Shown: positions 4,663 to 29,644 of the stretch, piece after piece
Numbering within the stretch: the first letter of the stretch is position 1
How the letters are laid out: the number at the start of each line of letters is the position of its first letter
Translations under genes and position numbers: made by a program
The notes under the pieces: generated by a model
Database searches by the model: none
The model's input: only the letters and a program-made list of their open reading frames with translations
What the model was told of the DNA's origin: nothing
Origin: Acaryochloris marina S15
GTDB taxonomy: Bacteria; Cyanobacteriota; Cyanobacteriia; Thermosynechococcales; Thermosynechococcaceae
Direction of reading: 5' to 3'
Assembly: GCF_018336915.1 (NCBI RefSeq)
Contig: NZ_CP064923.1
Coordinates: 3,540,001 to 3,572,000 of the forward strand
DNA length: 32,000 nucleotides

Positions 4663-5817
4663 ATGGAAAATCCCTTGTTGCTGATGATTCCAGGCCCTAC
4701 TCCAGTGCCCGAATCGGTATTATTTGCCTCGACTCAACAGCCCATCAGTCATCGTAGTCAGGATTTCAGAGATTTGATGGCTGATATTACGGCAAATTTA
4801 AAATGGCTCCACCAAACCCAAAATGATGTGTTGATATTAGCCAGCAGCGGCACCGGGGCCATGGAAGCTGGCATCATTAATTTTTTAAGCCCAGGTGATC
4901 GGGTATTGGTGGGATGCAATGGCAAGTTTGGCGATCGTTGGGCGGATGTTTGTGAACAATTTGGTCTAATTACCGAGCGGATTACGGTCCCTTGGGGGAA
5001 AGCTTTGGACCCAGAAGTATTTCGGCAGCATCTAGAATCCGATCAGGATAAGCAGATCAAAGCGGTGATTGTGACCCATAGTGAAACGTCCACCGGGGTT
5101 CTTAACGATCTGGAAACCATTAGCCGTCATATCAAAGCCCATGGTCGAGCCCTCAGCATGATTGATGCGGTCACCAGTTTAGGGATTTGTCCAGTCCCAG
5201 TCGATAAGTGGGGACTAGATGTGGTGGTTTCTGCGTCCCAGAAAGGATATCGAATGCCGCCTGGTTTGGGGTTTGTTTGTGTTAGCTCTTTAGCGTGGCA
5301 GGCTTATGAAACGGCTCGCTTTCCTCGGTTTTATCTGGACCTGGGGAAATGCCGCACGGATGCCGCTGCGAATACGACCCCGTTTACCCCGCCTGTAAAT
5401 CTATTCTTTGCCTTACAGGTAAGTTTAGCCATGATGAAGGCTGAAGGTCTGCTCTCCATGTTTGCCCATCAGCAACGGTTGATGCAGGCAACCCGAGCCG
5501 CTCTTCGAGCCTTGGACCTGCCTCTATTTATTCCTGACAATCATGTGGCTAGCCCGGCTGTCACTGCCATTGCCCCCGATCAGGTTGCTCCTGAAACCCT
5601 CCGATTCAAATTACAGCAGCACTACGGGGTGGTGATTGCTGCAGGCCAAGACCATATGCGAGGCAAACTCGTTCGCATTGGCCACTTGGGTTATGTTTGC
5701 GATCGCAATATTGTTACCACCATTGCAGCCGTAGAGGCGGCCTTGGCAGATTTAGACTATCCATTCCAAGCTGGGGCAGGTGTAGAGGCTGCCCATCGTA
5801 TCTTTAAAGGGAATTAG
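4663..5817 (+). CDS. Class V aminotransferase (alanine-glyoxylate / serine-pyruvate aminotransferase family, the cyanobacterial soluble hydrogenase small subunit type)
   Basis: The N-terminus is LMIPGPTPVP and the PLP-lysine context is SASQKGYRMPPG. It starts 6 nt after the nagA stop, so the two are probably co-transcribed. Confidence 0.85.
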   Translation: MENPLLLMIPGPTPVPESVLFASTQQPISHRSQDFRDLMADITANLKWLHQTQNDVLILASSGTGAMEAGIINFLSPGDRVLVGCNGKFGDRWADVCEQFGLITERITVPWGKALDPEVFRQHLESDQDKQIKAVIVTHSETSTGVLNDLETISRHIKAHGRALSMIDAVTSLGICPVPVDKWGLDVVVSASQKGYRMPPGLGFVCVSSLAWQAYETARFPRFYLDLGKCRTDAAANTTPFTPPVNLFFALQVSLAMMKAEGLLSMFAHQQRLMQATRAALRALDLPLFIPDNHVASPAVTAIAPDQVAPETLRFKLQQHYGVVIAAGQDHMRGKLVRIGHLGYVCDRNIVTTIAAVEAALADLDYPFQAGAGVEAAHRIFKGN

Positions 5818-6087: not shown

Positions 6088-6918
6088 TGGTATTAATAAG
6101 AAACCGAGTTTTACCTATGAGAGGAGATTATTAGGGCGTATAAAAAAGAATTGAACCAGCTTAACCAACCATGTGAGAGTCAAGATCGTTTTTGATCAAT
6201 TTACTATCAAAAAAGTCTTAGAACTTTTAACCCATCAGTGATTTGACTAACTGGCTGAAATTTATTTCACTTCAGCGATAGAAGAGATTTGCCCATGCAA
6301 AAACACCGCAAAAGCCTCTAAAGAAGAGAAAGTGATGATTTGTATAAAATTTAAGAGCAAATCAGATAACTTGTGCTGCACTAGCTAAACATTGCAGAAA
6401 AAACTGCAAAAATGCGCAAAGCCAATTAAATGCAACAGACAAAATACTATCAACCGACGATTAAGCTTCCCCCAGACCCTAGGAAAAGAGTTACTGCAAA
6501 CTACTAACCAGTAGTAGATAAATTCAGTAAGTTTTTCCAGTCGTATTGGGATAAGAGTGTAGCACAGTCTTCAAAGATTGATCCAACTTAAATATTTCTT
6601 TTAATAAAGTTCATAGGAATAAAAGATACAGGTCAGATGAGCAAGTAAATACACACATGAAAGTCACCTAACAAGCTTGTCCCACCAGGGGTTACAGACG
6701 TATAGCCTAGTCAAGTAACTCCGAGAATTTGAACGCGTTTTTGAGAAAATCAGCGCGTAATGATCTGCCTGCATCTGACGATGGAATTGTCTGGTTAATG
6801 TGATCTGTGGGGCAAAATAAGTTCATAATTTTGTGTAAGCTGAACCGGAAAGGCAATTTCTTTCACCTCACACTGCTTATCCAACTCCAATGATGATTCG
6901 TGTAAAGGCTGCAAATTG

Positions 6919-7665
6919 ATGAGTGGTAAGTTGGCGACCCGGCTGCGAGAAGGGACGAAACAATCTCATTCTTTGGCAGAAAATGCAGATTTTATCCAAT
7001 GTTTTCTCAAGGGAGTAGTTGAAAGAACGTCTTATCGCCAACTATTAGGAAATTTTCACTTTGTCTATAGCGCCCTAGAAGATCAGCTGACTCAACATCA
7101 AAACCATCCACTTTTAAGTCAGCTTTATTTTCCGGCGCTATATCGACAGCAGAGCTTGGCTACGGATCTAAGTTACTACTGGGGGCCTCAATGGCAAACG
7201 TCAATCACCCCTTCTAGTGCCACTCAACACTATATTGACAGGATTAATGAAGTTGCGATCGCAGATCCAATCCTGCTAGTCGCTCATAGCTATACACGGT
7301 ATCTCGGAGACCTTTCTGGGGGACAACTGCTCAAGAAGCTAGCCCAGCGAGGCATGAATCTCTCTCAAGGCCAAGGCACTGCCTTCTATGAGTTTGAAGA
7401 TATCCAGAACCCTAAAACCTTTAAGGTTACCTATCGGCAATCCTTGGATAATTTGCTTCTGGATGAAAGCACCATCACCCACATCGTAGATGAAGCCAAC
7501 CTTGCCTTTAAGCTCAATATGGAATTGTTCAAAGAAGTAGAAGGCAACTTAATTCAAGCCATAGGTCAGATGATCTTTAGCCATCTGACCCGCTCCCGCA
7601 GAAATGGGCAGTCTCAGTGGTCCACAGATCTGGGAGAAACCACTGCACTGCAGCCCCAGGATTAA
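6919..7665 (+). CDS. ho1: Heme oxygenase
   Basis: The N-terminus LATRLREGTKQSHSLAEN carries the proximal His context, followed by FHFVYSALE, AHSYTRYLGDLSGGQ and FYEF. The ORF track starts at TTG 6916; ATG 6919 is the likely start. Confidence 0.9.
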   Translation: MSGKLATRLREGTKQSHSLAENADFIQCFLKGVVERTSYRQLLGNFHFVYSALEDQLTQHQNHPLLSQLYFPALYRQQSLATDLSYYWGPQWQTSITPSSATQHYIDRINEVAIADPILLVAHSYTRYLGDLSGGQLLKKLAQRGMNLSQGQGTAFYEFEDIQNPKTFKVTYRQSLDNLLLDESTITHIVDEANLAFKLNMELFKEVEGNLIQAIGQMIFSHLTRSRRNGQSQWSTDLGETTALQPQD

Positions 7666-9238: not shown

Positions 9239-9465
9239 CGGCTGGTCATAAAACGATGACTTTTAGTTTTTTGCAAAGAATAAACTCAGCACTCTAATTA
9301 GAGTTGATGGGCAAATCTACCCTCACTATGAACAAAAGATAAGTATTCTGGAAACAATTATGAAATTATGCATTTATAATGCATGTGGCAACTACTGAAA
9401 ATTGCCAAAAATTAAAATTTCCGAACCCATTAACCGGGTAATTTCCTGGGCTTGAGGAGTTGAGT

Positions 9466-9975
9466 ATGGCCGTTGCTAGCCGATCTAAAGTTGTCCCCGT
9501 CCGACCGAAACAGGCTGCTCCCTCAGCCCGTTCCCGTCCCCCTCAACGACGGCGAAAACCCAAGACTTTATCCAGGCAAGAACAGCCCTTGGATCTGATT
9601 GATTCCCGTTCGCCACAATTTCCCAATTGGCTAATACTACTAATGGCGTTTCGGAAGCTGTCCACCCCTATTCTGATGGTGACAGTCTTAGGAATTTTGC
9701 CCCTCTATGCTTGGCGAGTGAATACTCAACAATCTTGGGGGACTCAATATTCAAAGCTAGAGAAATTGCAGCGTGATCAGCGAGATTGGCTCACTCGCAA
9801 TGAAGAGCGCAAATTCCAAATTTCAGAAAATTTAGAAAGCAATCCAGCAGGCTTTGTTCCCAAAAGCTCCAAAACGACCGTGTTTTTTAAGCCAGCCCCG
9901 GTGCGTCCAGCTCAGCCTGTGCCTCCTCAGCGGACTGGCATTACCCATATTGATGTAGCTCCGATTGGTTATTAA
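9466..9975 (+). CDS. Hypothetical bitopic membrane protein, FtsL-like by position and architecture
   Basis: It lies between rsmH and ftsI. ATG 9466 follows GAGGAG. The protein has a basic, Pro-rich N-terminus, one TM segment (ILMVTVLGILPLYAW), then a heptad-like segment (YSKLEKLQRDQRDWLTRNEERKF). I see no recognisable sequence family. Confidence 0.5.
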   Translation: MAVASRSKVVPVRPKQAAPSARSRPPQRRRKPKTLSRQEQPLDLIDSRSPQFPNWLILLMAFRKLSTPILMVTVLGILPLYAWRVNTQQSWGTQYSKLEKLQRDQRDWLTRNEERKFQISENLESNPAGFVPKSSKTTVFFKPAPVRPAQPVPPQRTGITHIDVAPIGY

Positions 9976-12598: not shown

Positions 12599-12964
12599 AT
12601 GGCTGAGCGACCGATTAAGAAGTCTGAATTAGAAAAGCGTGCCCAGACTGAAGGCCAAACAGGCGATGACAAAAAACAAATTCAGAAGGGCCGTAAAGAT
12701 GGACGTGGAAAAGGTCGAAACAATAAAGACAGAGAAAAGAGAAAGCCTGCTGTTCCCCTAGCTTTGATGCGTGGTCCCAGGCCTTCAGCAAAGGTGGAAG
12801 AGCCCGAACCCGTGGAAACTCCAGAAGAAGCAATTGCAGAAACGACTACAGAAGAAGAAGGAGCCGTAGCTGAGGCCACAGAAACCGTCGCTGAAGCAGA
12901 AACCGACTCACCCAATGCCGACGCTAGTGAAGCCAGCGAGGCAGAACCAGCCCCTGATAATTAA
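12599..12964 (+). CDS. Hypothetical low-complexity protein with a basic N-terminal half and an acidic C-terminal half
   Basis: This is a 121-aa ORF with an ATG start. It has strong compositional bias (K/R/G, then E/A/T/P), and overlapping antisense ORFs arise from the same bias. No family is recognised, so coding status is uncertain. Confidence 0.4.
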   Translation: MAERPIKKSELEKRAQTEGQTGDDKKQIQKGRKDGRGKGRNNKDREKRKPAVPLALMRGPRPSAKVEEPEPVETPEEAIAETTTEEEGAVAEATETVAEAETDSPNADASEASEAEPAPDN

Positions 12965-14644: not shown

Positions 14645-15049
14645 GTGAAAAAGCGCGTTACTCTTACGTTCCCTCGGCGAGCCGTTCCTGTCCCAGTCAC
14701 CTATCGATTGGCAAAGGAGTTCAATGTGGCGGCAAACATTATTCGTGCCCAGGTTGCCCCAAATCAAATTGGTAAGTTGGTGGTGGAATTAGCGGGGGAT
14801 ATTGACCAGCTTGATGCCGCCATTGATTGGATGCTGTCTCAAAATATTGATGTGTCTTCGTCTAATCGCGAAATTCTGATTGATGAAGATAGCTGTGTTC
14901 ACTGCGGTTTATGTACAGGGATATGCCCCACCCAGGCCCTTACCCTTGACCCCAAATCTTTTTTGCTGAACTTCACTCGATCTCGCTGCATCGTCTGTGA
15001 ACAATGTGTTCCTACTTGTCCAGTACAGGCAATTTCTACTAACTTTTGA
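14645..15049 (+). CDS. NIL domain plus 2x[4Fe-4S] ferredoxin-type protein
   Basis: An N-terminal NIL-like domain (LTFPRRAVPVPVTYRLAKEFNVAANIIRAQV) is followed by two Cys clusters, CVHCGLCTGICP and CIVCEQCVPTCP. The start is GTG. Confidence 0.75.
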   Translation: MKKRVTLTFPRRAVPVPVTYRLAKEFNVAANIIRAQVAPNQIGKLVVELAGDIDQLDAAIDWMLSQNIDVSSSNREILIDEDSCVHCGLCTGICPTQALTLDPKSFLLNFTRSRCIVCEQCVPTCPVQAISTNF

Positions 15050-15063
15050 TGGATGGTTACTCT

Positions 15064-15831
15064 TTAAATCACTATCACCGAAACCATCGCTTTTAGGTAA
15101 GATAACCCCGCTGCCATCAAAACCCCTGAATACTCGCCGTTGGGTAAATGCTGGGGAAGTTGAATAGAAATACTAATTGAACCTGTTGCGTCGGATGCAA
15201 GGCTTAGAGGGTTAGGGGCAATAGAGATGGCCTGCTGAGAAATCAGATCGCCGTCACAACCATATAGATCGGTGCAAAAGAACTTGGCCTGAATGGGTTC
15301 TTCGCTATCATTGTGAACCTTAAATGCGATCTGGACTGTCTCTCCAACATGGCTGGGATGAGCCGACTGCAGTAAAGGGACACTAGCCTCGCTCGATGGT
15401 GCTTGTTCTGACACCCCTCCCGTCCAATCTGATTTGAGGGAGAGTAGATTAGCTAATTCATTCACAAACTCATGCATTTCCCCTACTAAGCCTGGAACAG
15501 AATAGCTGGTGGGTCCAGAGGGAGTCGTATTTCCTAGATCTAGAGGAGAGGCAATGGTCTGGGCTGACTGTAAGGGCGTCGTTAGATCGTTATCAAGGAT
15601 AGCAGCAGCTTGCTGTACAAGGGCTTCAGGAGTCGGTATTGTTTCAGTTCCGCCCATCATAGGCTGAATAACTTCTGCAACAGGTTCTGTGAGTGCTTCT
15701 GGTTCAGCAGGTAGCCCTCCCATTTCAGAGACGGTAGGAGGGAGAGTCCCAACTTGATCCAGAAGGCCACGGATCGATGCGGGTAGCCCTTGGTCGATGA
15801 GCTGGAGGGGTTTGCGTCGATACTGTTTCAT
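15064..15831 (-). CDS. Hypothetical protein with a disordered P/E/T-rich N-terminal half and a beta-rich C-terminal domain (last gene of the encapsulin cluster)
   Basis: The ATG has GAGGA about 9 nt upstream. It lies 38 nt downstream of the polyprenyl synthase gene on the same strand. The C-terminal ~95 aa show an alternating beta-strand pattern (VQIAFKVHN...ISISIQLP...GEYSGVL). No family is recognised. Confidence 0.6.
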   Translation of the reverse strand: MKQYRRKPLQLIDQGLPASIRGLLDQVGTLPPTVSEMGGLPAEPEALTEPVAEVIQPMMGGTETIPTPEALVQQAAAILDNDLTTPLQSAQTIASPLDLGNTTPSGPTSYSVPGLVGEMHEFVNELANLLSLKSDWTGGVSEQAPSSEASVPLLQSAHPSHVGETVQIAFKVHNDSEEPIQAKFFCTDLYGCDGDLISQQAISIAPNPLSLASDATGSISISIQLPQHLPNGEYSGVLMAAGLSYLKAMVSVIVI

Positions 15832-15869: not shown

Positions 15870-16922
15870 CTACAGATTGCGGCTAATCATATAGTGAATC
15901 AATTTGGGGATAAACGCTTTCTCTTCAGAGTCGGGGGCATCGCCATAGGCCACTGAGAATTCTGCTAAGGCTGCTTCGGCAAACTGATGGGCGACTGCGA
16001 TCGCATAGGCAATACTGCCATAATCCTGCATTCGTTGAATCACCCAGCTCACCTCATCTTCAGACCGTTCATCTCGAGGCTTGTCCATAAAGAATTGCAA
16101 CATATTTCGCTCCGAAGGGGTGCCCTGTTTAAATAGGTGCACTAACATCAACGTTCGCTTCCCCTCCCAAATATCGCCACCAATTTCTTTGCCATACCGT
16201 TGAGAATCCCCCACCAAATTAAGCACATCATCCTGAATCTGAAAGGCAGCCCCCATAAAGTATCCAAATTTATTGAACCGATCGAGGTCTAGGGTGTCCT
16301 TGGAGGCAATCAAGCCGCCAATCCGGCAGGGATGCATAAAGCTATACCAACAGGTTTTGTTCAAAATCATCTGCAGGTAGTCGGTCTCAGTGACATCACA
16401 GCGATTGTCCCGTACCCAGCCCAGTTCTGAAGCTTGCCCCTCCAGGGATTTCAACATCAAATGCTCAAATTCTTCATAGATCCGTTGGGTCAGTTGATGG
16501 CCCAGCAAGGGGATATTCTCCCGTACCAATCTCAGGCTTAAGGCATTCATGGCATCGCCAATATTAACGGCGATGGGCACCCCCTGCTCAGCCTGCATGG
16601 TGGGCATCCGATGACGACATTCACTGTTATCTTCCACATCATCATGAACTAGGAAAGCATTGTGAATCATTTCTAAGGCAACGGCTGATTTGAGAGACTG
16701 TTCTTCAGTTCCCCCAAAGGCCTGACAGGTCGCCATACACAAGGCGGGTCGCAATCCCTTACCCATATGAGAGAGATGTCTTTTTAACGGCTCATACAGA
16801 TAGCGTTGGGGTTCTCCCGTCGGAATCACAGCCAACAAAGCGGCCAAAGTCACGTCTCGGTAATGACCGAGATGGACCTGAAGGGTCTCTAGATCCTGAG
16901 GGGCAAGGGCAGCTAGGGGCAC
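15870..16922 (-). CDS. Polyprenyl diphosphate synthase family protein (trans-IPPS, GGPP synthase type-III-like)
   Basis: The first Asp-rich motif is FLVHDDVEDNSECRHRMPT and the second is FQIQDDVLNLVGD. GKGLRP, EGQASELGW and GKEIGGDIWEGKRTL are also present. The GTG start has AGAGG 7 nt upstream. Confidence 0.85.
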   Translation of the reverse strand: MPLAALAPQDLETLQVHLGHYRDVTLAALLAVIPTGEPQRYLYEPLKRHLSHMGKGLRPALCMATCQAFGGTEEQSLKSAVALEMIHNAFLVHDDVEDNSECRHRMPTMQAEQGVPIAVNIGDAMNALSLRLVRENIPLLGHQLTQRIYEEFEHLMLKSLEGQASELGWVRDNRCDVTETDYLQMILNKTCWYSFMHPCRIGGLIASKDTLDLDRFNKFGYFMGAAFQIQDDVLNLVGDSQRYGKEIGGDIWEGKRTLMLVHLFKQGTPSERNMLQFFMDKPRDERSEDEVSWVIQRMQDYGSIAYAIAVAHQFAEAALAEFSVAYGDAPDSEEKAFIPKLIHYMISRNL

Positions 16923-16959: not shown

Positions 16960-18939
16960 TCACTCAGGAATGATGCGGACTTTTCCAGAGCGCGGCTGAG
17001 CAGGAGAGGGTTGGGGGTGTTCTGATAATGTTTGGAGAGTAGCTAAGTTAGGGATTGTTTCAGGCATAGTTTGGGACTCGGCCATCCGCACCACAATATC
17101 TAACACCGACTTTTGCACCACTTCCATCAGCTCTTGCCGCAATTCAACGTTGTCAAATCCTTGAGTGCCGACTGCATAAAGGGGGTTACCTAATTTTTCT
17201 AGGGGCTGATCAATGGTGACTCCTAACAACTGTTCTAGAATGCGGCCTCCTTGGTGGGCCAGTCTGAGAACCGATAACCCCCATCGCACCAAACTGTCAT
17301 CCCAGGGTAAGCCCTGATGAAATCGAATGCGATCGATCACTCGCCAAGGTTCAAAAATTTCTTGCTCATGCAGTTTCCAAGTCTTGCACGGGGGAACATC
17401 TGCTTTTGCAGCAGCAATAATGCCATTGACAGCCCGACGGGCCGCTTCATTGGCTCCTTCCATCGTCGCTAGATCCGTATAGGTGCGGACGTAATCAGAA
17501 GCGAGAAACAGATTGGGAATATCCGTCACGGCATCAGGGCGCTTCGACCAAGTATTAATTAAATTGACTAGGAGTGGTTCTTCATTCGTGTCTCCTTCCC
17601 CTTCTACGAGATAAATGGCGGGATCCAAAAACCAATGGTCTAAAAATTCGTCTTTGAGAATTTCTTGACCGTGGATATTGATACTCTTTTTGAGTTGTGC
17701 CCAGACCTCATTTTTGACTTCTTCCCGGGTACATTCCTTGGCAGTTTTACCGTTGAGACCTGGTTCATCCCACTCGGAGATATCAACAGAGATGATGCCT
17801 TTAATTCGGCCATCCGCATACTGATTAAAATCAACCCCAGGCCAGAACTGTCGTTGGGAAATGGACGTGAGCGCCCAGGGAGAATCCACATAAATCGCAT
17901 GACCATGGGACAGGGGCACATCCTCTGTTAAATACAGTTGGATGCCATTCATCCAGGACACCCCGCCTTCACTGAGCTGATGGAGCTTGCCTAATTCTGG
18001 ATCCGCCGTTTTAATACTGTCGGTAACCAGCTCCGCCATGCGTTCGATCGGGACTGCAGCAATGTAATAGTCCCCTTGGGCCTGAAAGGTTTGTCCCTCT
18101 GTTTCAATCGTGACCCCCTGAATCAGGCCATTTACACAGTCAATGGCTAAGACCTTGGCCTCCAGATGATATTGCACCCCTTGTTGAATTAAGTAGGCCA
18201 GCCAAGGATTGATCCAGGCATCGTTGGTGGGTGCATTGAGCACGCGATCGCTACTCGGTCCCGGCTCTACTAAATCAAACAGGAGCTGGACAAAAATATC
18301 ACCAATCGTTTTGGTACTCGCCAGGTGGGCTTTTGCTGCGACCAAGGAGCGAGTAATGCCATGACCAAAAATTTTCTGATAGGCCGGGGAACGATGGTCT
18401 GCTTCTACAAACTCCCACCAGTCTTCTTTCTCATACTCCGCTAAGCGCCGTTCTTCACAGGAGGTAATGATTTGCCAGACCTTGGTGCCGAAAAACGCAA
18501 TTTCTTCGGGAGAAACTCCAAAGTCAGGTCCAAAGATGGTTGGAAACTCATTGAGAATTTCCTGGACATCTGAAAAGGTGCGAGGAGAGCGGGATGGAAA
18601 CACAATGGGACGCTGACCATAGCGAGCCATTTCGACCCGCGTAGTATCGACCAAATTATCGGCAACGGTTTTGTCTTTCCCGTAAGGAATCCGCGCCATT
18701 GTATCGACAATATGCTTGTAGAAGCGGGGGAAAAATCGGAAGCCATGTTCCCCAGGTAGTGGCTTCCGAGGGCCATTGGGTCCCATGCCCCCTGTATTGG
18801 GCACAGGAATACTGCGGGCCTTACCCCCCGGAATCTTCTTGGCTTCGTATACTTCTACGGCAAACCCTCGTTCAATCAGCTCATGGGCGGCACTCAGTCC
18901 GGCAACGCCGCCACCAAGGATCACAACCTTCTTTTGCAT
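16960..18939 (-). CDS. FAD-dependent oxidoreductase, amine oxidase / phytoene desaturase superfamily, with a 146-aa C-terminal extension
   Basis: The N-terminal dinucleotide fold is VVILGGGVAGLSAAHELIERGFAVEVYEAKKIPGGKA. The C-terminal FAD motif is FLASDYVRTYTDLATMEGANEAARRAV. After that, 146 further residues end in a Pro-rich linker and GKVRIIPE. The ATG has AGGAAA upstream. Confidence 0.85.
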   Translation of the reverse strand: MQKKVVILGGGVAGLSAAHELIERGFAVEVYEAKKIPGGKARSIPVPNTGGMGPNGPRKPLPGEHGFRFFPRFYKHIVDTMARIPYGKDKTVADNLVDTTRVEMARYGQRPIVFPSRSPRTFSDVQEILNEFPTIFGPDFGVSPEEIAFFGTKVWQIITSCEERRLAEYEKEDWWEFVEADHRSPAYQKIFGHGITRSLVAAKAHLASTKTIGDIFVQLLFDLVEPGPSSDRVLNAPTNDAWINPWLAYLIQQGVQYHLEAKVLAIDCVNGLIQGVTIETEGQTFQAQGDYYIAAVPIERMAELVTDSIKTADPELGKLHQLSEGGVSWMNGIQLYLTEDVPLSHGHAIYVDSPWALTSISQRQFWPGVDFNQYADGRIKGIISVDISEWDEPGLNGKTAKECTREEVKNEVWAQLKKSINIHGQEILKDEFLDHWFLDPAIYLVEGEGDTNEEPLLVNLINTWSKRPDAVTDIPNLFLASDYVRTYTDLATMEGANEAARRAVNGIIAAAKADVPPCKTWKLHEQEIFEPWRVIDRIRFHQGLPWDDSLVRWGLSVLRLAHQGGRILEQLLGVTIDQPLEKLGNPLYAVGTQGFDNVELRQELMEVVQKSVLDIVVRMAESQTMPETIPNLATLQTLSEHPQPSPAQPRSGKVRIIPE

Positions 18940-18987: not shown

Positions 18988-19866
18988 TTAGGACAAAGAA
19001 AAGGCACTCACGGCACCTTCTTCCTTCACTCTCAGCACAAATTTCTCATAGACTCGGAACAGATATCTCGCCTCGTTATTGACATTTAAAAATTGCACGG
19101 TGGGGGAAGTGGCCACGACTAAATCAATGGGATCACCCGCTAAAGAAACGACCACAACTTGATAATCTTGTAATGTACTGGAACGTAAGAGCTGTGTACC
19201 TAACAAAGGCTCAATGCGATCTTTGGGTAGCACAAGAGAGTCATTTGGGGTATTTGCCTCAACAAACGCACCTTGACCTAGGATGCAAGCAAACGGACCC
19301 AGATGCCCACTTGACTCAAGGTTTGCGATCGCACCCGCAATATTAATAACAAGCCGCTCACCCGTAGAACCCGAAATTGGATCATATGACGATCTATCCA
19401 CAAGCCCATCTGCTTGTTGACCGCCCTTCACTCTACACAAAATGGGGCTTCTAGCAACCTTCAATTGTTGATTGGTTGGGTCAGCCTGAGGTAGGCCATT
19501 AAAAATGATTGCATCTTCTGAACGTGCTAATAAATTAGCTGCTCGCCGAAATACAGAAATTGCACCGATTAAATTCTCTTCAGCTAGCTGACGCTGTTTC
19601 AGCTCAATGTAAACAGACAACGTCCAAAGCCTTAGCGTATCAATATCGTCAACTTTAATAGGATCTAGTACTAGATCCTCGGATATGGGATCTTCTTCAG
19701 GTTCAACTTCAATTAGTGTTTGGCTGCGAACCACAGTGGCACTTTGTTCAAGGGGACCGCAACAAGCTAGAAATGATCCCGCAACACTAACCTTACTCAC
19801 CTCATCAGCAACAAGCTGTTGTATCTGATTCCACTGCTCAGAAGTCCAGTCAATTTGAGAGCTCAT
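18988..19866 (-). CDS. Encapsulin nanocompartment shell protein (family-1-like, Linocin_M18 / HK97 fold)
   Basis: This 292-aa protein is collinear with what I recall of T. maritima encapsulin and M. xanthus EncA. N-terminal WTSEQWNQIQQLV matches LTEKQWQEIDNRA. EDAIIFNG matches EDEVIFRG/EDELIFYG. SGHLGPFACILG matches QGHFGPYAVVLS. DLVVA...ARYLFRVYEKFVLRVKEEGAV matches DLAVS...HPFRVLEALLLRIKHPDAI. Confidence 0.8.
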   Translation of the reverse strand: MSSQIDWTSEQWNQIQQLVADEVSKVSVAGSFLACCGPLEQSATVVRSQTLIEVEPEEDPISEDLVLDPIKVDDIDTLRLWTLSVYIELKQRQLAEENLIGAISVFRRAANLLARSEDAIIFNGLPQADPTNQQLKVARSPILCRVKGGQQADGLVDRSSYDPISGSTGERLVINIAGAIANLESSGHLGPFACILGQGAFVEANTPNDSLVLPKDRIEPLLGTQLLRSSTLQDYQVVVVSLAGDPIDLVVATSPTVQFLNVNNEARYLFRVYEKFVLRVKEEGAVSAFSLS

Positions 19867-19993
19867 AGGGGCTGAATATCCTATATATCGAAAGATAAGC
19901 TAACTGCTTGCACAACACAGTTATTAGTAGAAAACCCAGTGCAGAAAATCAGATCATATAAACAAAATGGAATTGCCAAAAGTTTACAACAAA

Positions 19994-20878
19994 CTAGAGG
20001 GCATACAAATCATAAATTACGAGTAAATCTGACATTTGCACTTCCCCAATTCCGATGCACTGGAGTCGATTTAGCCATTTATACTTTGGATGCTCAGTTA
20101 AGAATCGAGGGGTTACTCTCAGTGGAGGGGCATTGAGCCATTGTTGCTTAAGGAAATTTTGATATCCCTTTTGTCCTAATTCAAAAACCCCTGAATATCT
20201 TGTTTGAATCAGGGCTCCATCAACCGTTTGAAGTGTGGCATAAGCCCCTACAATACCGATTCCATCATGACGAATAGTCATATGGTCTCCCCCTTGTGGA
20301 CCAAAAATGGCATTTAACTTTGGACCATTCACCTGTCCTGCCTTGATGGACCAGTTGACCTTCAAGCCCTCCGGAGTTTCTCCAATAATTTCAGGAGGCT
20401 CTTGTAACTGAACTTGCACAGTAGCAAGATAATTTAAATTACATGGGAATCGATGAAACTGCGATGACTTACTGGTTGGAGTTTTTGATGTGGATTGAGG
20501 AGTAGTTAATGACGATGGCAAATCATTGATAACAAAGGAGGAAGGAAATTGCTGCGTGTTGCAAACATTGGGTACTTGCCGTCCTGCACAAGATAGGGTT
20601 ACCAAATACTCTACTTTTTGGGGTTCCAATAATGACAGGAAATGAACTGAGAAGTATTGCTTTGCAGCGACATAATCAGAGTGGCGAAGTACACCAGCAG
20701 TGGATTGAACCAGTCTATTTTTATTTGAACGATAATAGACGGTAACCTTATTTGCCGGATGTAGTGGATAAACCCCAACTGTAATAGAGATGCCTTGCCT
20801 AGTTGCTATAAAGCTCTCAGATGCTGGAGCATCCTCCGTTCCATACCAAAGCTTTAACCCATCCTGGCAAACTTCCAT
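19994..20878 (-). CDS. Two-domain protein: N-terminal beta-rich domain of unknown function, S/T/P linker, C-terminal DUF3237 (UPF0311) domain
   Basis: The C-terminal half matches the DUF3237 pattern I recall: GQVNGPKL...GPQGGDHMTIRHDG...LQTVDGALIQTRYSG...RVTPRFLTEHPKYKWLNRLQCIGIG...LVIYDLYAL. The linker is LPSSLTTPQSTSKTPTSKSS. The ATG lies 9 nt after the upstream gene's stop. Confidence 0.75.
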   Translation of the reverse strand: MEVCQDGLKLWYGTEDAPASESFIATRQGISITVGVYPLHPANKVTVYYRSNKNRLVQSTAGVLRHSDYVAAKQYFSVHFLSLLEPQKVEYLVTLSCAGRQVPNVCNTQQFPSSFVINDLPSSLTTPQSTSKTPTSKSSQFHRFPCNLNYLATVQVQLQEPPEIIGETPEGLKVNWSIKAGQVNGPKLNAIFGPQGGDHMTIRHDGIGIVGAYATLQTVDGALIQTRYSGVFELGQKGYQNFLKQQWLNAPPLRVTPRFLTEHPKYKWLNRLQCIGIGEVQMSDLLVIYDLYAL

Positions 20879-20887
20879 GAGAACCTA

Positions 20888-23800
20888 TCATCCCTCTAAA
20901 GAGACAGAGCTTTCTAATTCATCTAGAAAAATACGGACTTGACTAAGGTCAGGCGTACCCAAGCTTTCCGTAAACCGATTATAAATTTCGGAGGTACATT
21001 CCCGAGCTGCGTTCACGCTACCCTGGGAAAGCCAAAAACGACCTAGGCCAAGAACAGCTCTAAGTTCCAACATGATCGAATTTTGTTTACGGGCAAGGGA
21101 TGTGGCTTTTTTAAAGCAGTCTTTCACGATGCTGACATCAGAAGCCTTGAGTATGGGTTGAGTTTGACTGAATTGTTGCCATAAAAACTCAGCTTTCAAA
21201 CGATATAACTCAGGCTCCATATGATGCTCATTCCGAGTTGTCGCCTCTTGAATTCCTGCTTCTAATGCTTGAAAGGCTTCCTCAAAACGCTCAGACAACC
21301 AATAAACCTCCGCCAACATCCCCATAACTTGTGGAAAAATAACTGAAGTTCCAGTGTTCTTAAATAACTCCAACCCTTCGATCATTTCCTGCAGACCATC
21401 TTGAGTTTTCCCTTGCCAAGCAATTGACCATCCATGAAAGAGCATCGCCACAGGAATCCACAATAGAAACCCTTCTGTGCGGGAGATATCCAGTAATTCT
21501 GCTGATTTTTCTTCAACTAAGGGCAAGTTACGAGTCAGATGATACTGATGCAAGCTAGCACCTAAGGCATAAGCTTTATTGGGAAGGTGGTTCAGGTTTT
21601 GGGCAAGTTCCATAGCAGTTTCTACCTGTTTGGGCAACTCATCTGGATAGCCCAACATCCAAAGGCTGCCTGCCAGAAACATGTGTATACATACTGCGGA
21701 AGAAAGCTGGGTTTCAAATACTAAATGTTGCTCTGCTTCAAACTCAAATCTGGTTAACCCTTCATTAGCGACCTCTCTGGCATCAACATATTCACCCCGA
21801 TAAAACTGGGTATAGCCCACTGCATGGCAAGCCATCTCATGCATGATCGGTTGATCAGCGAGTTGAGCTCTCTGCCATACTTCTCCTCCAGCCTCAAGGG
21901 CTTCATCCATTTGGCCACGGAGAAAGTAATTCGTCCACAGTCCCCATAAAGCCTTAGATTGACTTTGCTGGTCTTCAGTTTTTAGGCTGAGTACCTTTGC
22001 GCGAAGACAGGTTTGTTCAACTTCTACAGACGCCCAACCTTTAATCGCCATAAAGGCGGGAGCAAGGCAAAGCTGTATCTTCAGTTCCAATCCATCTCGT
22101 TCGTTGTTATCAGAAAGACCGTCAAGTAATTCAAGCCCTCGTATCAGATGTGCGATCGCTTCCGAATTCGCGGCTTGCTCTAAATCTCGTTGTCCAGCCT
22201 GTAACCAATATTGGATGGCAATATGCAGAAGCCCCGCTTCCGTGAAGTGATAGGCCAACAGCTCTGGGCGAATTGTTCCTTGATCATCCCTGCGTCGCTC
22301 CAGGGTATAGGCAATGCGCTGATGGTAAGCTTGCCGACGTATTTTCACTAAAGATTGGTAAGCCGCATCCTGGATCAGTGCATGTTTAAATTGATACTTA
22401 GCAAAAGGGGGAGACCCTTCTTGATAGAGGAGTCCCGATTCAACCAGTTGATTCAGACCATTGCGTAGAGTGGCTTGATTCCACTGAGACACCTCTTCTA
22501 ACAATTCATAGTCAAATTCACGTCCTAAGGTCGAGCCGAGTTGAGCCACTTCCTTCACAACAGACAGACGATCCAGGCGCTCAATCAAAGAGTCATGCAA
22601 CGTTGTCGGAATTGCCAGCGCGACATTGTCATCACTAGAACGGTTTAAGGCAGGGCTTTCATTAACATCTGCTTCTAGAACCGTTTTCGTCAATTCCTCC
22701 ACAAATAGGGGAATGCCATCTGTTTTCTGCACAATTTGTTGGACAAGGGACTGGGGCAGGGATTTCTCCTGAGCCGTTTGCTCAACCATCACCTGAATTT
22801 CTTCCCGTCCTAGGCTATCGAGCTTCAAAGAGTGAAGGTGAGGATAAGTATGCCAAGACGACGTAAATTCAGGACGACAGGTTAATAAAATGAGTAAGCG
22901 ATGATCTCGAATATGATCCAAAAAATAAGTAATGGCATCGAGGGTCGAAGCATCCATCCAATGGAGATCTTCAATCACCAGTAAGACAGGCTGTTGCTTC
23001 GCTAACGCCAAACAAACTGCTGTCATTGCCTCAATTGTTTGTTGTTTTTGCCGCTCAGGGGTCAAGTTTAACGGCGGATACTGTTCTTCAAAGGGAACGG
23101 CCAGTAAACTTGCAAATAAAGGGGCATATTCTCCTTGAGGCAAGGAACATTGCCCCATGAATTGTTCAATTTTTTCTAATTTCTCAGCAGATGTATCATC
23201 CTGAGAAAAGTTAAATGTAGCTTGCTTTAAAAATTCAGTAATGGGGTAGAAGGCACTATTACGATAGTACGGTGAACCTTGAATCTCAGTGAGCCATACG
23301 TCTTGGTTTTGAGCAACATTTTTTTTGATCTCCCAAACTAACCTAGACTTTCCCATCCCTGCTTCTCCTTGCAGCAGAACCGCACGGGTATGACCAGCAA
23401 TAGATTCTTGCCACCGTTCAGACAACAGTGCTGTTTCAGCAACTCGATTAACAAAAGGAGTTAACCCCGACTTTTCAGCAACAGCAAACCTGCTTTTGGC
23501 TTTACTTTCCTTAAGAACCTGAAAAATCACGATGGGATCTGAAATCCCTTTCAGTTTTTGTTGTTCCAATTGCTGGCATTCAAAAAACCCTTTCACTAGA
23601 CGTTGGGTTGCAGCACTAATGATGACTGTATTGGGTTGGGCCAGGGACTGTAAGCGAGCCGCTATGTTGGGTGTTGCCCCCACAATGGCCATGGGATCAG
23701 GTGCATTCTTCACCCCCATTTCGCCAATCACAACCAATCCAGTGTGAATTCCAATACGGACCGAAAGACGCTCTCCCCACTTTTTCATGATTTTGGGATT

Positions 23801-24346
23801 GAGTCTTTGCAGGGATTCTAATATCCGTAGACCACTGCTAACGGCTCTCCTGGCATCATCTTCATGGGCCCGAGGGTAGCCAAAATAGATTAGGACCCCA
23901 TCGCCTAAGTACCGGGCGATGTATCCTTCAGCATTCGAAATTGCCTTAGCACAGAGTTCCTGATAGGCCAAAAAAACATCCCGGAGATCTTCAGGATCAA
24001 GTCTTTCTGCTAAAGGCGACGACTCTACCAAATCGCAAAACATCACGGTTAATTGCCGTCGTTCTGTTTCCCGACTCCACCCATCCTCAGATGGAGTATT
24101 TATATTTGTTTTCAGCTTGTGAGTATGATTTTTATGTAAGGAAATTTGATGAGCTTCTAGAGTCTGAGCGACCAGTACTTCTTGATTGCGATCAACTGCA
24201 ATTTTTAGAACATCGATAATCTCATATTTTATGTCTTCTAAATATTGCTCATCAATGCCAAATTGTCGCTTAATCGCTCTGTAAGAAACTTGACCTCGAC
24301 GATGCAAAATCTCAATTATTTGTTCTAGAATCTCTTCAAAACTCAT
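20888..24346 (-). CDS. Multidomain signalling protein: class III adenylate/guanylate cyclase domain, AAA/STAND P-loop ATPase and C-terminal TPR-like repeats
   Basis: Cyclase motifs are present: LTVMFCDLVESS, YLGDGVLIYFGYP, VRIGIHTGLVVIGEMG, GATPNIAARLQS. The P-loop is LLQGEAGMGKSRLV and Walker B is VLLVIEDLHWMD. A long helical-repeat C-terminus follows. The N-terminal ~50 aa (ILEQIIEILHRRGQVSYRAIKRQFGIDEQYLEDIK) is typical of this architecture. Confidence 0.85.
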   Translation of the reverse strand: MSFEEILEQIIEILHRRGQVSYRAIKRQFGIDEQYLEDIKYEIIDVLKIAVDRNQEVLVAQTLEAHQISLHKNHTHKLKTNINTPSEDGWSRETERRQLTVMFCDLVESSPLAERLDPEDLRDVFLAYQELCAKAISNAEGYIARYLGDGVLIYFGYPRAHEDDARRAVSSGLRILESLQRLNPKIMKKWGERLSVRIGIHTGLVVIGEMGVKNAPDPMAIVGATPNIAARLQSLAQPNTVIISAATQRLVKGFFECQQLEQQKLKGISDPIVIFQVLKESKAKSRFAVAEKSGLTPFVNRVAETALLSERWQESIAGHTRAVLLQGEAGMGKSRLVWEIKKNVAQNQDVWLTEIQGSPYYRNSAFYPITEFLKQATFNFSQDDTSAEKLEKIEQFMGQCSLPQGEYAPLFASLLAVPFEEQYPPLNLTPERQKQQTIEAMTAVCLALAKQQPVLLVIEDLHWMDASTLDAITYFLDHIRDHRLLILLTCRPEFTSSWHTYPHLHSLKLDSLGREEIQVMVEQTAQEKSLPQSLVQQIVQKTDGIPLFVEELTKTVLEADVNESPALNRSSDDNVALAIPTTLHDSLIERLDRLSVVKEVAQLGSTLGREFDYELLEEVSQWNQATLRNGLNQLVESGLLYQEGSPPFAKYQFKHALIQDAAYQSLVKIRRQAYHQRIAYTLERRRDDQGTIRPELLAYHFTEAGLLHIAIQYWLQAGQRDLEQAANSEAIAHLIRGLELLDGLSDNNERDGLELKIQLCLAPAFMAIKGWASVEVEQTCLRAKVLSLKTEDQQSQSKALWGLWTNYFLRGQMDEALEAGGEVWQRAQLADQPIMHEMACHAVGYTQFYRGEYVDAREVANEGLTRFEFEAEQHLVFETQLSSAVCIHMFLAGSLWMLGYPDELPKQVETAMELAQNLNHLPNKAYALGASLHQYHLTRNLPLVEEKSAELLDISRTEGFLLWIPVAMLFHGWSIAWQGKTQDGLQEMIEGLELFKNTGTSVIFPQVMGMLAEVYWLSERFEEAFQALEAGIQEATTRNEHHMEPELYRLKAEFLWQQFSQTQPILKASDVSIVKDCFKKATSLARKQNSIMLELRAVLGLGRFWLSQGSVNAARECTSEIYNRFTESLGTPDLSQVRIFLDELESSVSLEG

Positions 24347-25132
24347 TTCAAGTCGCGGCTCTCTTGCTGAGAGAAAGTATTTAAGCTCAAAAAGTTACAA
24401 TATTTCTCCAAATTTGAGGTCAGTGTCTAGTCAAAGAGATTGAGATTTTAGCCGTAGTTAGATCGCCCTATAATCCCAGCATAACGCACCCACGACACAA
24501 AGAGCATAGAAGCTATGCAGGGAGGACAATAGAGTGAGATTTAGGCAAAGACGATTGCAGGGGGTTTCTCAATAACCGATACCTTGCTTAAAGGTCTTAA
24601 GGTTCTTAATATTAGACAGTCTATTAACTTAGATGAATTAGCTGGTATTCATGCCGTAGAAACCACATGCTGGGTCACTATATTCTAATATCATCAACCT
24701 CTTGCGAATACCCAGATCAATATAACCATTTGTAACAGCTGACCTTTGATATTCATCTCTTCAACCCTTTCTATCAAACCTAGAATAGAAAGACTTCAAA
24801 GTGTAGCCCTAGTGCCGTAACTCTCTTCACCAAAAAACAGGGTAACTTTCGGGCTGAAGACGAGCGGTCACAGTAGAAAGCTGAAATCAACATTCTCTGA
24901 AGAAGCGCTTGGACTATATTGAGGTTCTCTGGGAGATTGATAGCAATCCCCTTAAGATATAGAGAGTTTCAGAATCAGGTAGAGTACTTCTGGTCCTAAT
25001 CGTCTAACAAAATCCTTCTACAGGCTCATAGAGAGGATATCTAGTCTATAAGATAGATTTTGCCCCCTTATCAAGGAACAACAAAAGTTCAACCCACCGT
25101 TTAATCATTCAAAGGAAACTGACAGAGTAATT

Positions 25133-26263
25133 ATGGCCAGAAATGGGATTGGTATCAATACAGCCCAAGATCGCTCAGAACGGATTGTTGGCCAAATTCA
25201 TGTTTATGACGGAGCTGGCAAAGGCAAATCACAAGCAGCATTAGGCGTTGTACTGCGTTCAATTGGCTTAGGTATTGCGTCTGCATTTCCGACCCGTGTT
25301 CTGCTACTACGGTTTTTAAAAGGTCCTGGCCGCCCCTATGCCGAAGATGCTGCCATTGAAGCTCTGCAGCGTGCCTTTCCCCACTTAATTGATCAGGTGC
25401 GAACGGGAAGAGCTGAGTTCTTTGGGGCGGACGATATCACCAAGTTTGACCGCCAAGAAGCCCAACGAGGATGGGACATTGCCAAAGGTGCAATCGCATC
25501 AGGGCTCTACTCCGTTGTTGTTCTGGATGAACTCAACCCAGTCTTGGATTTGGGCCTCTTAGACATAAATGACGTGGTCCAATCTCTGCGCAAAAAGCCG
25601 GACCATTTGGAGGTTATCTCCACCGGTAGAGGGACGCCCCAAGGCCTGCTCAATATTGCCGATCTCCACTCCGAGATGAAGCCCCATTCCCATGAAGGCA
25701 CCCGCCAAGGGATTGAAGGGATTGAAATTTATACCGGCTCAGGTAAAGGTAAATCCACCAGTGCTCTAGGCAAGGCCCTTCAGGCGATTGGGCGTGGCAT
25801 TAGCCAGGATCAATCTCATCGTGTCCTGATTATGCAGTGGCTCAAAGGTGGCCTCGGATATACGGAAGATGCTGCCATTTCCGCCATGCAGCAAAGTTAT
25901 CCCAATCTAGTGGATCATCAGCGTTGTGGCCGAGATGCCATTGTTTGGCGAGGTCAACAACAAGAGATTGATTATGTAGAAGCAGAGCGGGGTTGGGAAA
26001 TTGCCCGAGCTGCGATCGCATCGGGTCTCTACAAAACCATCATCTTAGATGAACTCAATCCCACGGTTGATTTGGAACTTCTGCCAGAAGAACCAATCAT
26101 GCAGGCTTTTTTACGCAAACCTCGTGATACAGAAATCATCATCACAGGGCGCTGTCAGAACCCTCCTGCCTATTTTGAATTGGCGAGTACCCATTCAGAG
26201 ATGGTTTGTCATAAACACTATGCAGAAAAAGGAGTTGATCTCAAACGCGGTGTAGACTTTTAA
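25133..26263 (+). CDS. Tandem-duplicated CobO/BtuR-like protein (two cob(I)yrinic acid a,c-diamide adenosyltransferase-type P-loop modules in one polypeptide)
   Basis: There are two collinear halves. Each has a P-loop (GAGKGKSQAALG / GSGKGKSTSALG), LKG, EDAAI, RGW-IA--AIASGLY----LDELNP, LRK-P, TGR and HSEM. Only the second half ends with the CobA-like KHYAEKGVDLKRGVDF. Confidence 0.8.
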   Translation: MARNGIGINTAQDRSERIVGQIHVYDGAGKGKSQAALGVVLRSIGLGIASAFPTRVLLLRFLKGPGRPYAEDAAIEALQRAFPHLIDQVRTGRAEFFGADDITKFDRQEAQRGWDIAKGAIASGLYSVVVLDELNPVLDLGLLDINDVVQSLRKKPDHLEVISTGRGTPQGLLNIADLHSEMKPHSHEGTRQGIEGIEIYTGSGKGKSTSALGKALQAIGRGISQDQSHRVLIMQWLKGGLGYTEDAAISAMQQSYPNLVDHQRCGRDAIVWRGQQQEIDYVEAERGWEIARAAIASGLYKTIILDELNPTVDLELLPEEPIMQAFLRKPRDTEIIITGRCQNPPAYFELASTHSEMVCHKHYAEKGVDLKRGVDF

Positions 26264-28979: not shown

Positions 28980-29249
28980 CTAACCAGAGGAATGAGATTG
29001 ATATGCAAGCCTTTCCTGGGCTAAATCTCGAATTAAAGGCAATCTAGCGCTGATATAGGCGTTTAAGTCACTAGCATCGACCATTTTTAGGAACTCTTCC
29101 CGACGAAGCTGTCGAGACAACCAGTTCACCAAAGCATCATTGTCTAGGGTCAATAAAATATTGGTTTGTGTCTCTTCAATTAATGACCAAAATTTACGGA
29201 TTGCTTCAGGAGACATGAACCCGGCCTTTAAGATTCTCTTTATATTCAT
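28980..29249 (-). CDS. Hypothetical protein (start uncertain)
   Basis: The ORF is open to 29345, but its first 32 codons look non-native. ATG codons at 29249 and 29216 give an 89- or 78-aa helical protein (SPEAIRKFWSLIEETQTNILLTLDNDALVNWLSRQL...). No family is recognised. Confidence 0.4.
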   Translation of the reverse strand: MNIKRILKAGFMSPEAIRKFWSLIEETQTNILLTLDNDALVNWLSRQLRREEFLKMVDASDLNAYISARLPLIRDLAQERLAYQSHSSG

Positions 29250-29644
29250 CAGGTTACATGAGAAATTTTGAGGTGAGAGGGATCTGGCGGAAGAAAACAT
29301 AAAAGTTACATTATGCTCATGAAATAAATTGACTTTCATGTGCAAGCGTAGAGAAATATAAATACTGCTTTTATAGATAAAACTCTGAAAACCCTGCTAA
29401 GTATAGGTTTTTTCAATACTTAACCTAATCTTCATTGCGAGTTATTAACAGTAAAATCTCTATCATGAGCGCTATGCAATTTAACAATTCAGGTCGTCCA
29501 GATGTTGTACAGGTGAGCCAAATCCCTGCGGTTCGATTGAGGCTATTTTATTAAGAAGCTGTAGGGGTGAATTCCCATGATTGCTTGGAGAGGGGAGCAA
29601 TGCAGGGCAAGACTGTGCTGCTAGTTTAATCAACTGAATTAACT

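Follow-up and report, generated by a model that had tools for sequence, protein, structure and literature searches.

What is the product of the open reading frame (ORF) at positions 18988 to 19866 of a 32,000-nucleotide (nt) stretch of the Acaryochloris marina S15 genome (contig NZ_CP064923.1, positions 3,540,001 to 3,572,000; hereafter, the window), and with which proteins does it work? A preliminary description had taken it for a divergent family-1-like encapsulin shell protein and had emphasized an acidic insertion near the expected E-loop. The answer that we favor, and consider probable, is that the product forms the shell of a family-1-type nanocompartment encoded in a gene cluster for isoprenoid chemistry. 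The interest of the locus lies more in this gene context than in the acidic loop.

Fold and family of the shell protein

18988..19866, minus strand: encapsulin-type shell protein, divergent family-1-like, PF04454, 292 amino acids (aa) (ORF, Pfam, AlphaFold [AF2], Foldseek, and hhalign)
19789..19842, minus strand: N-terminal helix of the shell protein, residues 9-26 (DSSP on the AF2 model)

The ORF fills its span exactly and begins with ATG. Its product matched the Pfam model PF04454 (Linocin_M18) with 76 bits (cut-off, 24.3; E = 3.5e-21), as a member of family 1 should, while a plain sequence search of the PDB reached only its C-terminal ~110 residues (E ~5e-6). The AF2 model, for which an alignment of 74 homologue sequences of the shell protein (alignment A1) served as input, had a mean predicted local distance difference test (pLDDT) score of 93.9 and a predicted template modeling (pTM) score of 0.90. 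DSSP assigned the N-terminal helix to residues 9-26, the E-loop strands to residues 45-53 and 70-79, and the spine helix to residues 100-123, followed by the A-domain. The model, therefore, has the A-domain, the P-domain with its spine helix, and the E-loop of an HK97-type fold, the lack of which the preliminary description had named as evidence against its proposal.

Using Foldseek with this model against the PDB, we found that the top 50 matches were family-1 encapsulins without exception (template modeling [TM] scores of 0.65-0.79; E down to 2e-19). The closest were those of B. methanolicus, M. xanthus (EncA), and Q. thermotolerans (TM 0.75-0.79; 20-21% identity), and T=1 shells such as that of T. 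maritima ranked lower (TM ~0.67). In hhalign, the A1 profile aligned collinearly over residues 4-289 with the T. maritima encapsulin, the sequence used being identical to PDB 3DKT (probability, 96%; E = 1.5e-9; 22% identity), in agreement with the collinearity proposed earlier. Helix 9-26 aligned with the T. maritima N-terminal helix and takes the place of a phage-type extended N-arm; this helix is a hallmark of family 1 and, in shells of known structure, builds the pocket for the cargo peptide. Residues W7 and W12 do not vary within the clade, for which A1 has 20 invariant and 50 nearly invariant positions. These data support that the ORF almost certainly encodes a divergent family-1-type protein of the encapsulin fold, and the central claim of the preliminary description thus held. 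An HK97 capsid of a prophage or phage was considered and rejected: the protein had no PHROG match, the window contains no phage genes, and the neighboring genes are metabolic or regulatory.

The shell gene is part of a conserved six-gene cluster

20888..24346, minus strand: STAND regulator, 1152 aa, with a class III nucleotidyl cyclase, an AAA_16/NB-ARC ATPase, and TPR (Pfam)
19994..20878, minus strand: two-domain NTD-X-DUF3237 protein, 294 aa (Pfam PF11578, 104 bits, residues 147-293 only)
16960..18939, minus strand: FAD-dependent oxidoreductase AOX, 659 aa, candidate cargo (Pfam PF01593/PF13450, AF2 model)
15870..16922, minus strand: trans-polyprenyl diphosphate synthase PPS, 350 aa, short-chain type (Pfam PF00348, 200 bits)
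15064..15831, minus strand: P255, 255 aa, no Pfam or NCBIfam match (homologue alignment)

Six genes on the same strand, of which the shell gene is the third, follow one another in the order STAND cyclase regulator, NTD-X-DUF3237, shell, AOX, PPS, and P255, with gaps of 9, 127, 48, 37, and 38 nt; the regulator gene stops 9 nt upstream of the DUF3237 gene, and the AOX gene begins 48 nt after the shell gene. The same arrangement is present in Acaryochloris CCMEE 5410, in one Armatimonas metagenome-assembled genome (MAG), and in one Paucibacter MAG. A weak terminator-like hairpin (18999-19021, minus strand; 9 pairs, of which 3 are G-C) lies over the last shell codons, and its T-rich tail crosses the shell stop codon (18988-18990). 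Judged from the sequence, this hairpin could raise the ratio of shell to cargo expression; in a scan of the window, terminator-like and promoter sites were no commoner than in shuffled sequence.

By scanning one genome per species, we identified 80 related loci (numbered with the prefix L below), many of which are MAG contigs; ORF calls in these loci start at the first start codon, and N-termini may be overextended. The best locus was on the chromosome of A. marina MBIC11017 (92% identity). According to database labels, the loci belong to Cyanobacteria, Armatimonadota, Gemmatimonadota, Acidobacteriota, Alpha- and Betaproteobacteria (Bradyrhizobium, Mesorhizobium, Variovorax, and others), Actinomycetota, Bacteroidota, and Myxococcota, and the gene set stays with the shell gene in at least seven phyla. 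The earlier remark that family-1 shells are rare in cyanobacteria is roughly right, but must be qualified in that the clade is present in genomes of Acaryochloris, Thermosynechococcaceae, Cyanobium, and Prochlorococcaceae. A search of the full library returned cluster representatives numbering 133 at E ≤ 1e-30, 395 at E ≤ 1e-10, and 695 at E ≤ 1e-3.

Co-occurrence was counted in 50 loci, those with 5 kb or more of upstream DNA and 8 kb or more of downstream DNA. AOX, PPS, and the regulator each accompanied the shell gene in 48 of these 50 loci, DUF3237 in 44, and all four together in 42. Loci without AOX despite adequate downstream DNA were L076 and L082-L084, which are among those with the most divergent shell homologues, and L080, where PPS and the regulator are still present. 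Starting reciprocally from AOX, we found a shell sequence adjoining it in three of three orthologues on long contigs, although in two of them it was frameshifted. We regard it as close to certain that the shell functionally belongs to this gene cluster.

The Acaryochloris shell protein is closest to those of Chthonomonadaceae (57% identity) and Armatimonas (51%), compared with 35-37% identity to those of Cyanobium/Prochlorococcaceae, and these sequence relationships suggest separate acquisitions of the cluster within the cyanobacteria. The G+C content is 0.39-0.44 at 19001-21000 and 24001-25000 versus 0.45-0.52 elsewhere in the window; these low-G+C zones correspond to the shell and DUF3237 genes and to the intergenic region upstream of the regulator gene. 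A dedicated, horizontally mobile cluster for isoprenoid chemistry is the best explanation of this locus. Public annotation labels are "encapsulin," "FAD-dependent oxidoreductase," and "hydroxysqualene dehydroxylase." Our literature searches for encapsulins with the partners in this cluster, which covered papers other than those available by subscription only, returned no paper on it. The rows listed from the supplement of Andreas & Giessen 2021 included one relevant entry, a "Minor" Variovorax system with a different neighborhood in the part listed.

AOX and PPS are a flavoprotein-synthase pair

AOX consists of a core similar to amine oxidases and phytoene desaturases (residues 1 to ~510) followed by a helical and disordered C-terminal extension. 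Its model (pLDDT 77.9) had rice phytoene desaturase as the best PDB fold (5mog; TMt 0.80; root mean square deviation, 4.1), followed by oleate hydratases, CrtD, and amine oxidases, while a sequence search of the PDB matched the FAD-binding N-terminus only. AOX orthologues span 54-97% identity, with 54-60% across phyla, and share many invariant residues. Among the NCBIfam equivalogs, none reached its cut-off (HpnE, the best, 82.3 bits versus 283; PDS 33 versus 569), and the PDS, ZDS, and CrtD matches were limited to the FAD-binding N-terminus. Because AOX is so far below every one of these cut-offs, it is, by sequence, a distinct subfamily. With phytoene desaturases (PDS/CrtI/CrtD) and HpnE, it shares the GxGxxG FAD fold and the amine-oxidase/desaturase architecture, but it differs from them in its 150-residue C-terminal extension and in having as its partner a prenyl diphosphate synthase rather than a phytoene or squalene synthase; none of the window ORFs scanned matched PF00494 (phytoene/squalene synthase).

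The nearest NCBIfam models for PPS were IdsA, the family-2 encapsulin cargo polyprenyl transferase, and geranylgeranyl diphosphate (GGPP) synthase, all with scores below their cut-offs. PPS keeps DD(I/V)ED, DDVLN, and a Phe four residues before the first of these motifs, as do 64-66 of 68 sequences. Its second Asp-rich motif is DDVLN (residues 231-235) instead of DDxxD, with the Asn present in 66 of the 68 cluster-associated synthases. As a rule for chain length in these enzymes, a Phe four residues before the first Asp-rich motif goes with a short prenyl product, and the residue at this position in PPS therefore suggests a C15-C20 product. In 41 loci and in most lineages, AOX and PPS are fused in a single polypeptide of ~986 aa, which is strong evidence from sequence that the two act together.

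The DUF3237 protein shares its N-terminal domain with Tc toxins

20489-20872, minus strand: NTD-X, unannotated N-terminal domain, residues ~3-130 (conserved; DGLxLWYGTxDAPA...CAGRQVP)
20000-20440, minus strand: DUF3237 barrel, residues 147-293 (PF11578)

In the protein encoded upstream of the shell gene, an S/T/P-rich linker joins NTD-X to a DUF3237 barrel with relatives in the PDB (4pux, 3c5o, and 3g7g). Characterized DUF3237 members are small, cofactor-free barrels, among which PhnH catalyzes the hydroalkoxylation of a prenyl-group alkene and PhcF/PhcG act as decarboxylases (PMC11969235, PMC9942872). NTD-X itself had no match in Pfam, NCBIfam, the PDB, or PHROG. It is, however, also found at the N-terminus of giant TcA-type toxin subunits (46% identity over 98 residues in L084; BLASTP E = 8e-23), the genes for which lie directly downstream of very divergent PF04454 genes on Waterburya, Dapis, Blastocatellia, and Desulfuromonadales contigs. 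Pairs of a divergent PF04454 gene and a gene for an NTD-X protein are at L084:9977-16732, L083:9977-20956, L076:1720-17237, and L078:1510-4085; the TcA identity was confirmed in L083 and L084, and the gene upstream encodes TcB/TcC in L084 and L076. The literature that we searched contained no paper linking encapsulin-like proteins with Tc toxins. That a pair of an encapsulin-like gene and NTD-X is present in two unrelated systems suggests that NTD-X binds the encapsulin-like protein. We also considered that DUF3237 proteins are encoded next to the most divergent shell homologues and rejected this, as the matches concerned are NTD-X on TcA toxins without a DUF3237 barrel.

These toxin loci bear on the question of whether the shell protein forms a closed compartment at all or is instead an HK97-fold adaptor, chaperone, or scaffold for NTD-X proteins, or a relic of a phage capsid. 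The position of its very divergent relatives between TcB/TcC and TcA genes is in agreement with an adaptor, since a TcA assembly of the 1.4-MDa class is implausible as cargo; the same possibility is favored by the lack of a canonical targeting peptide and by a score below the NCBIfam cut-off for family 1 (see below). However, the proteins in the Tc loci are only 26-30% identical to the shell protein and say little about its clade, and in L083, L084, and L078, the best stretch of the PF04454 match covers about half of the model. The shell protein itself is predicted with high confidence to have the full HK97 fold with all shell-contact elements, its clade is strongly conserved at the positions counted above, nearby phage genes are lacking, and the protein has no PHROG match. 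We consequently consider an adaptor or relic improbable.

The cyclase domain of the regulator matches PADLOC models of Pycsar-type (PycC) cyclases. An anti-phage defense system was nevertheless rejected: PADLOC returned no match for the shell protein, the DUF3237 protein, PPS, or P255, and the match of the candidate model PDLC01086 (C-3',4' desaturase) to AOX residues 3-71 (E = 1.8e-10) is read as generic flavoprotein similarity at the sequence level. P255 has a conserved N-terminal MxxYRRKPL, a helix with IVxxAAxILDEEM, and a C-terminal domain of ~100 aa that is predicted from sequence to be beta-rich; it was detected where AOX and PPS are encoded separately and never in the fused type. Variants of the accessory proteins were observed at L086:14683-15950, L085:14250-16010, and L055:4897-8115, and comprise a DUF3237-globin fusion, a regulator with added SAM domains, and proteins of ~1070 aa that contain a DUF3237 barrel.

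Candidate loading signals and the probable cargo

16963..16992, minus strand: C-terminal peptide of AOX, RSGKVRIIPE, candidate targeting or docking peptide (translation)

Unfused AOX proteins end in the motif R-[SR]-G-[KR]-V-R-I-[ILV]-P, in which G is conserved in 43, V in 44, and I in 44 of 48 orthologues. The motif caps a low-complexity, nonconserved tail, with pLDDT <50 at residues 575-596 and 634-659. Family-1 cargo signals classically have this layout, with a short conserved peptide that ends a long disordered tail, and the AOX peptide may be a cargo-targeting signal. On the side of the DUF3237 protein, loci of the fused type (L004, L013, L026, L033, L037, and others) usually encode a C-terminal tail of 9-45 residues (e.g., "VRVGGR...", "IRAGQPLPSSGLPR...", "xVGGR...", and "GQPLPSSGLP..."); this tail is absent in the Acaryochloris/Armatimonas type, which has the AOX C-terminal peptide and P255 instead. 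We considered these tails as a signal and found them suggestive, but rejected them as too heterogeneous.

Genomic association together with the predicted structures argues that the enzymes are probably encapsulated cargo of the shell. Several observations weigh against this conclusion. The shell protein scored 75.3 bits on the NCBIfam equivalog NF041155 (encap_f1) and did not reach the cut-off of 100, although NCBI names some members of its clade (P0038 and P0105) family 1. Enzymes of the phytoene desaturase type usually act at membranes and with quinones, a poor fit to a closed shell. The AOX peptide is unlike the canonical TVGSL-like targeting motif of family 1 (PMC8346489), and our search of the AOX-PPS fusions, at both the linker and the C-terminus, revealed no counterpart. 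The linker motif "DPTVKxGSAYVPTP" was tried as a universal signal of the fusions and rejected, as it occurs in some clades only and is absent from the Cyanobium group. Thus, in the fused form, the commonest form of the system, we identified no loading signal on the main enzyme. Finally, because the AOX peptide and P255 were both seen in the split form only, the peptide could have the different role of docking AOX to PPS or P255.

The same observations lead to an alternative in which the shell is real but has the DUF3237 protein as its only partner, held through NTD-X, while AOX-PPS acts outside, for example, at the membrane, and the AOX peptide replaces the covalent AOX-PPS link or binds P255. 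This alternative accounts for the presence of NTD-X-DUF3237 in fused and unfused clusters alike, for NTD-X beside encapsulin-like genes in Tc-toxin loci, for the restriction of the AOX peptide and P255 to the split form, for fusions without a universal linker or C-terminal motif, and for the membrane-associated desaturase as the closest fold to AOX. It does not explain why AOX and PPS are tied to the shell gene at least as firmly as DUF3237 (48/50 versus 44/50), or why in L019 and L045 DUF3237 is apart from the shell gene or on the opposite strand while AOX directly follows it, and it leaves the AOX tail with the layout of a family-1 cargo signal. On balance, we consider it unlikely that the DUF3237 protein is the sole partner, but give this alternative more weight than the others discussed here, and we retain AOX and PPS as the probable cargo.

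The acidic insertion is a variable loop at the E-loop tip

19639..19710, minus strand: acidic segment EVEPEEDPISEDLVLDPIKVDDID, residues 53-76 (translation, model, length survey, and shuffle test)
CCMEE 5410 and IP29b_137: insert absent
Window and MBIC11017: insert of +36 nt
IP29b_176: insert of about +100 nt, ~3x longer

In the shell protein, EVEPEEDPISEDLVLDPIKVDDID is followed by LRLWTLSVYIELK. The acidic segment contains 11 D/E and 1 K in 24 residues, while D/E make up 10% of the remainder of the protein, and 68 of 20,000 shuffled shell proteins reached 11 acidic residues in any 24-residue window. The insertion proper, residues ~54-69, forms the loop that joins E-loop strands 45-53 and 70-79 and is modeled with a pLDDT of ~80; in the profile alignment, it corresponds to insert states facing the tip of the T. 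maritima E-loop. The acidic stretch is, therefore, in the E-loop region, as first proposed. The segment equivalent to residues 48-76 is also longer, as had been noted, with 29 residues here and 17 in the nearest orthologues, those of Acaryochloris CCMEE 5410 and IP29b_137; its length in the 74 family members is 15-69 residues (median, 21).

We considered whether the insertion is functionally decisive in that it alters inter-subunit contacts and, in this way, the triangulation (T) number or the size of the shell, an importance implied by the preliminary description. Its location at the E-loop tip in both the model and the profile alignment, an acidity far above chance in the shuffle test, and the fact that the nearest solved relatives of the shell protein build T=3 or T=4 shells are consistent with this idea, and the E-loop of other HK97-fold proteins takes part in inter-capsomer contacts. 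However, EncA in its T=1 form also matched the shell model (7s21; TM 0.75), so that the similarity marks the subfamily and not the assembly state. Moreover, no other part of the family varies as much in length as the tip, and the insert is an in-frame indel between Acaryochloris strains and MAGs, all of which retain the operon: orthologues that are 69-75% identical to the shell protein and belong to the same operon lack it, and a further Acaryochloris MAG carries a version of about three times the length. Even the window and MBIC11017 have drifted apart in the sequence of the insert, and model confidence is lower at this point. A tandem repeat beneath the insert was looked for and not found. 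Given the range of tip lengths across the family and the strain-level indel, the insert is unlikely to define shell architecture, and a decisive role in T number or size is very improbable, even more so than an adaptor or relic. Instead, these data point to a lineage-specific, fast-evolving variable loop at the E-loop tip, which is probably surface exposed.

Comparison with known encapsulin systems

Described family-1 encapsulins handle iron or peroxide. With the classical members (T. maritima 3DKT, M. xanthus EncA 4PT2/7S20, and Q. thermotolerans 6NJ8), the window shell shares PF04454, the fold, the N-terminal helix, and a similar size, as well as a gene order in which the shell gene directly precedes that of an enzyme ending in a flexible tail with a short conserved peptide. 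It differs from them in being only 14-22% identical to solved shells, in the candidate signal RxGxVRIxP in place of TVGSL-type peptides, and in its conserved accessories, the STAND cyclase regulator and the two-domain DUF3237 protein; compared with T. maritima, there is also a clade-wide insertion of ~22 residues after the spine helix. The largest survey lists DyP, ferritin-like proteins including IMEF, hemerythrin, bacterioferritin, NIR-HAO, and fusion systems as family-1 cargo classes and leaves 90 "minor" systems unassigned (PMC8346489). No DyP, ferritin-like/IMEF, hemerythrin, bacterioferritin, or NIR-HAO cargo is encoded in the cluster or the window, and neither an amine-oxidase-type flavoenzyme nor a prenyl synthase is among the classes listed in that survey.

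To our knowledge, terpenoid enzymes have so far been found as cargo of family 2B shells only, which are unrelated to family 1 and differ in details of the fold. The cargo of these shells consists of terpene cyclases or polyprenyl transferases, as in the 2-methylisoborneol and geosmin systems (PMC11550324, bioRxiv 10.64898/2026.07.21.739788). The window cluster resembles family 2B in the genetic coupling of a shell to isoprenoid enzymes and in a link to cyclic nucleotides, which in family 2B is a cyclic nucleotide monophosphate (cNMP)-binding domain in the shell protein and here is a cyclase gene. A further likeness, the 185 bits of PPS on the NCBI model for the family 2 encapsulin cargo polyprenyl transferase, is far below the cut-off of 450 and is equaled by the generic IdsA/GGPPS models. 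Family 2B proteins have a cNMP-binding domain in the E-loop and a family-2 sequence. The window shell, by contrast, has neither this domain nor an extended N-arm; PF04454 is its sole match, and its E-loop carries an acidic insert of 16 residues, not a domain. In addition, the cluster lacks a terpene cyclase and has the flavoprotein-synthase pair as its core.

Other genes in the window

Elsewhere in the window, we noted a cytochrome P450 gene (30406-31770, minus strand), a heme oxygenase gene (6916-7665, plus strand), and a gene for a NIL-domain 2x[4Fe-4S] ferredoxin (14645-15049, plus strand) that converges on the end of the cluster; none of the three is conserved with the cluster beyond Acaryochloris. 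A CobA/CobO/BtuR-type corrinoid adenosyltransferase of 376 aa is encoded at 25133-26263 (plus strand), with its best Pfam stretch at residues 197-376 and a second matched stretch besides. ORFs of 121-390 aa without a Pfam match are at 3484-4656 (plus), 9460-9975 (plus), 12599-12964 (plus), and 28980-29345 (minus); the one of 390 aa lies directly before a class-V aminotransferase gene (4663-5817).

Proposed mechanism and implications

In the mechanism that we propose, the shell would assemble and enclose both the DUF3237 enzyme and a complex of AOX with PPS. PPS would supply a C15-C20 prenyl diphosphate, AOX would oxidize or desaturate this chain or a derivative of it, and the cofactor-free DUF3237 barrel would carry out a follow-up step, e.g., a cyclization or decarboxylation. 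The shell would confine a hydrophobic or reactive intermediate, or flavin-derived H2O2, a parallel to the enclosure of terpene cyclases by family-2B encapsulins. In the unfused Acaryochloris form, AOX would probably be loaded via RSGKVRIIPE on its disordered tail, with PPS carried along as a complex, and the DUF3237 enzyme would probably bind the shell protein through NTD-X. The STAND regulator would couple expression or activity to a cyclic-nucleotide signal.

A broader reading, to which we give somewhat less than an even chance as a whole, is that these loci represent an unrecognized, widespread class of family-1-derived encapsulins, with the AOX-PPS pair or fusion and the DUF3237 enzyme as cargo, loading by NTD-X, control by the STAND nucleotidyl cyclase, and reuse of the pair of NTD-X and encapsulin-like protein in Tc-toxin loci. 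As part of this reading, the folded NTD-X of ~100 residues would serve as a loading mode alongside, or in place of, a short C-terminal peptide.

What would be new here is a family-1-type shell with a new set of cargo and possibly a new loading mode. As A. marina MBIC11017 and species of Variovorax and Bradyrhizobium are culturable carriers, the system is directly testable. If the proposed mechanism is correct, it points to an isoprenoid-derived product and would offer nanocompartment engineering a new class of cargo and possibly new tags for loading. Isoprenoid enzymes would then be tied to a second, independent shell family, with carriers from cyanobacteria to Variovorax and Bradyrhizobium, and the confinement of prenyl chemistry would seem to be a recurrent solution.

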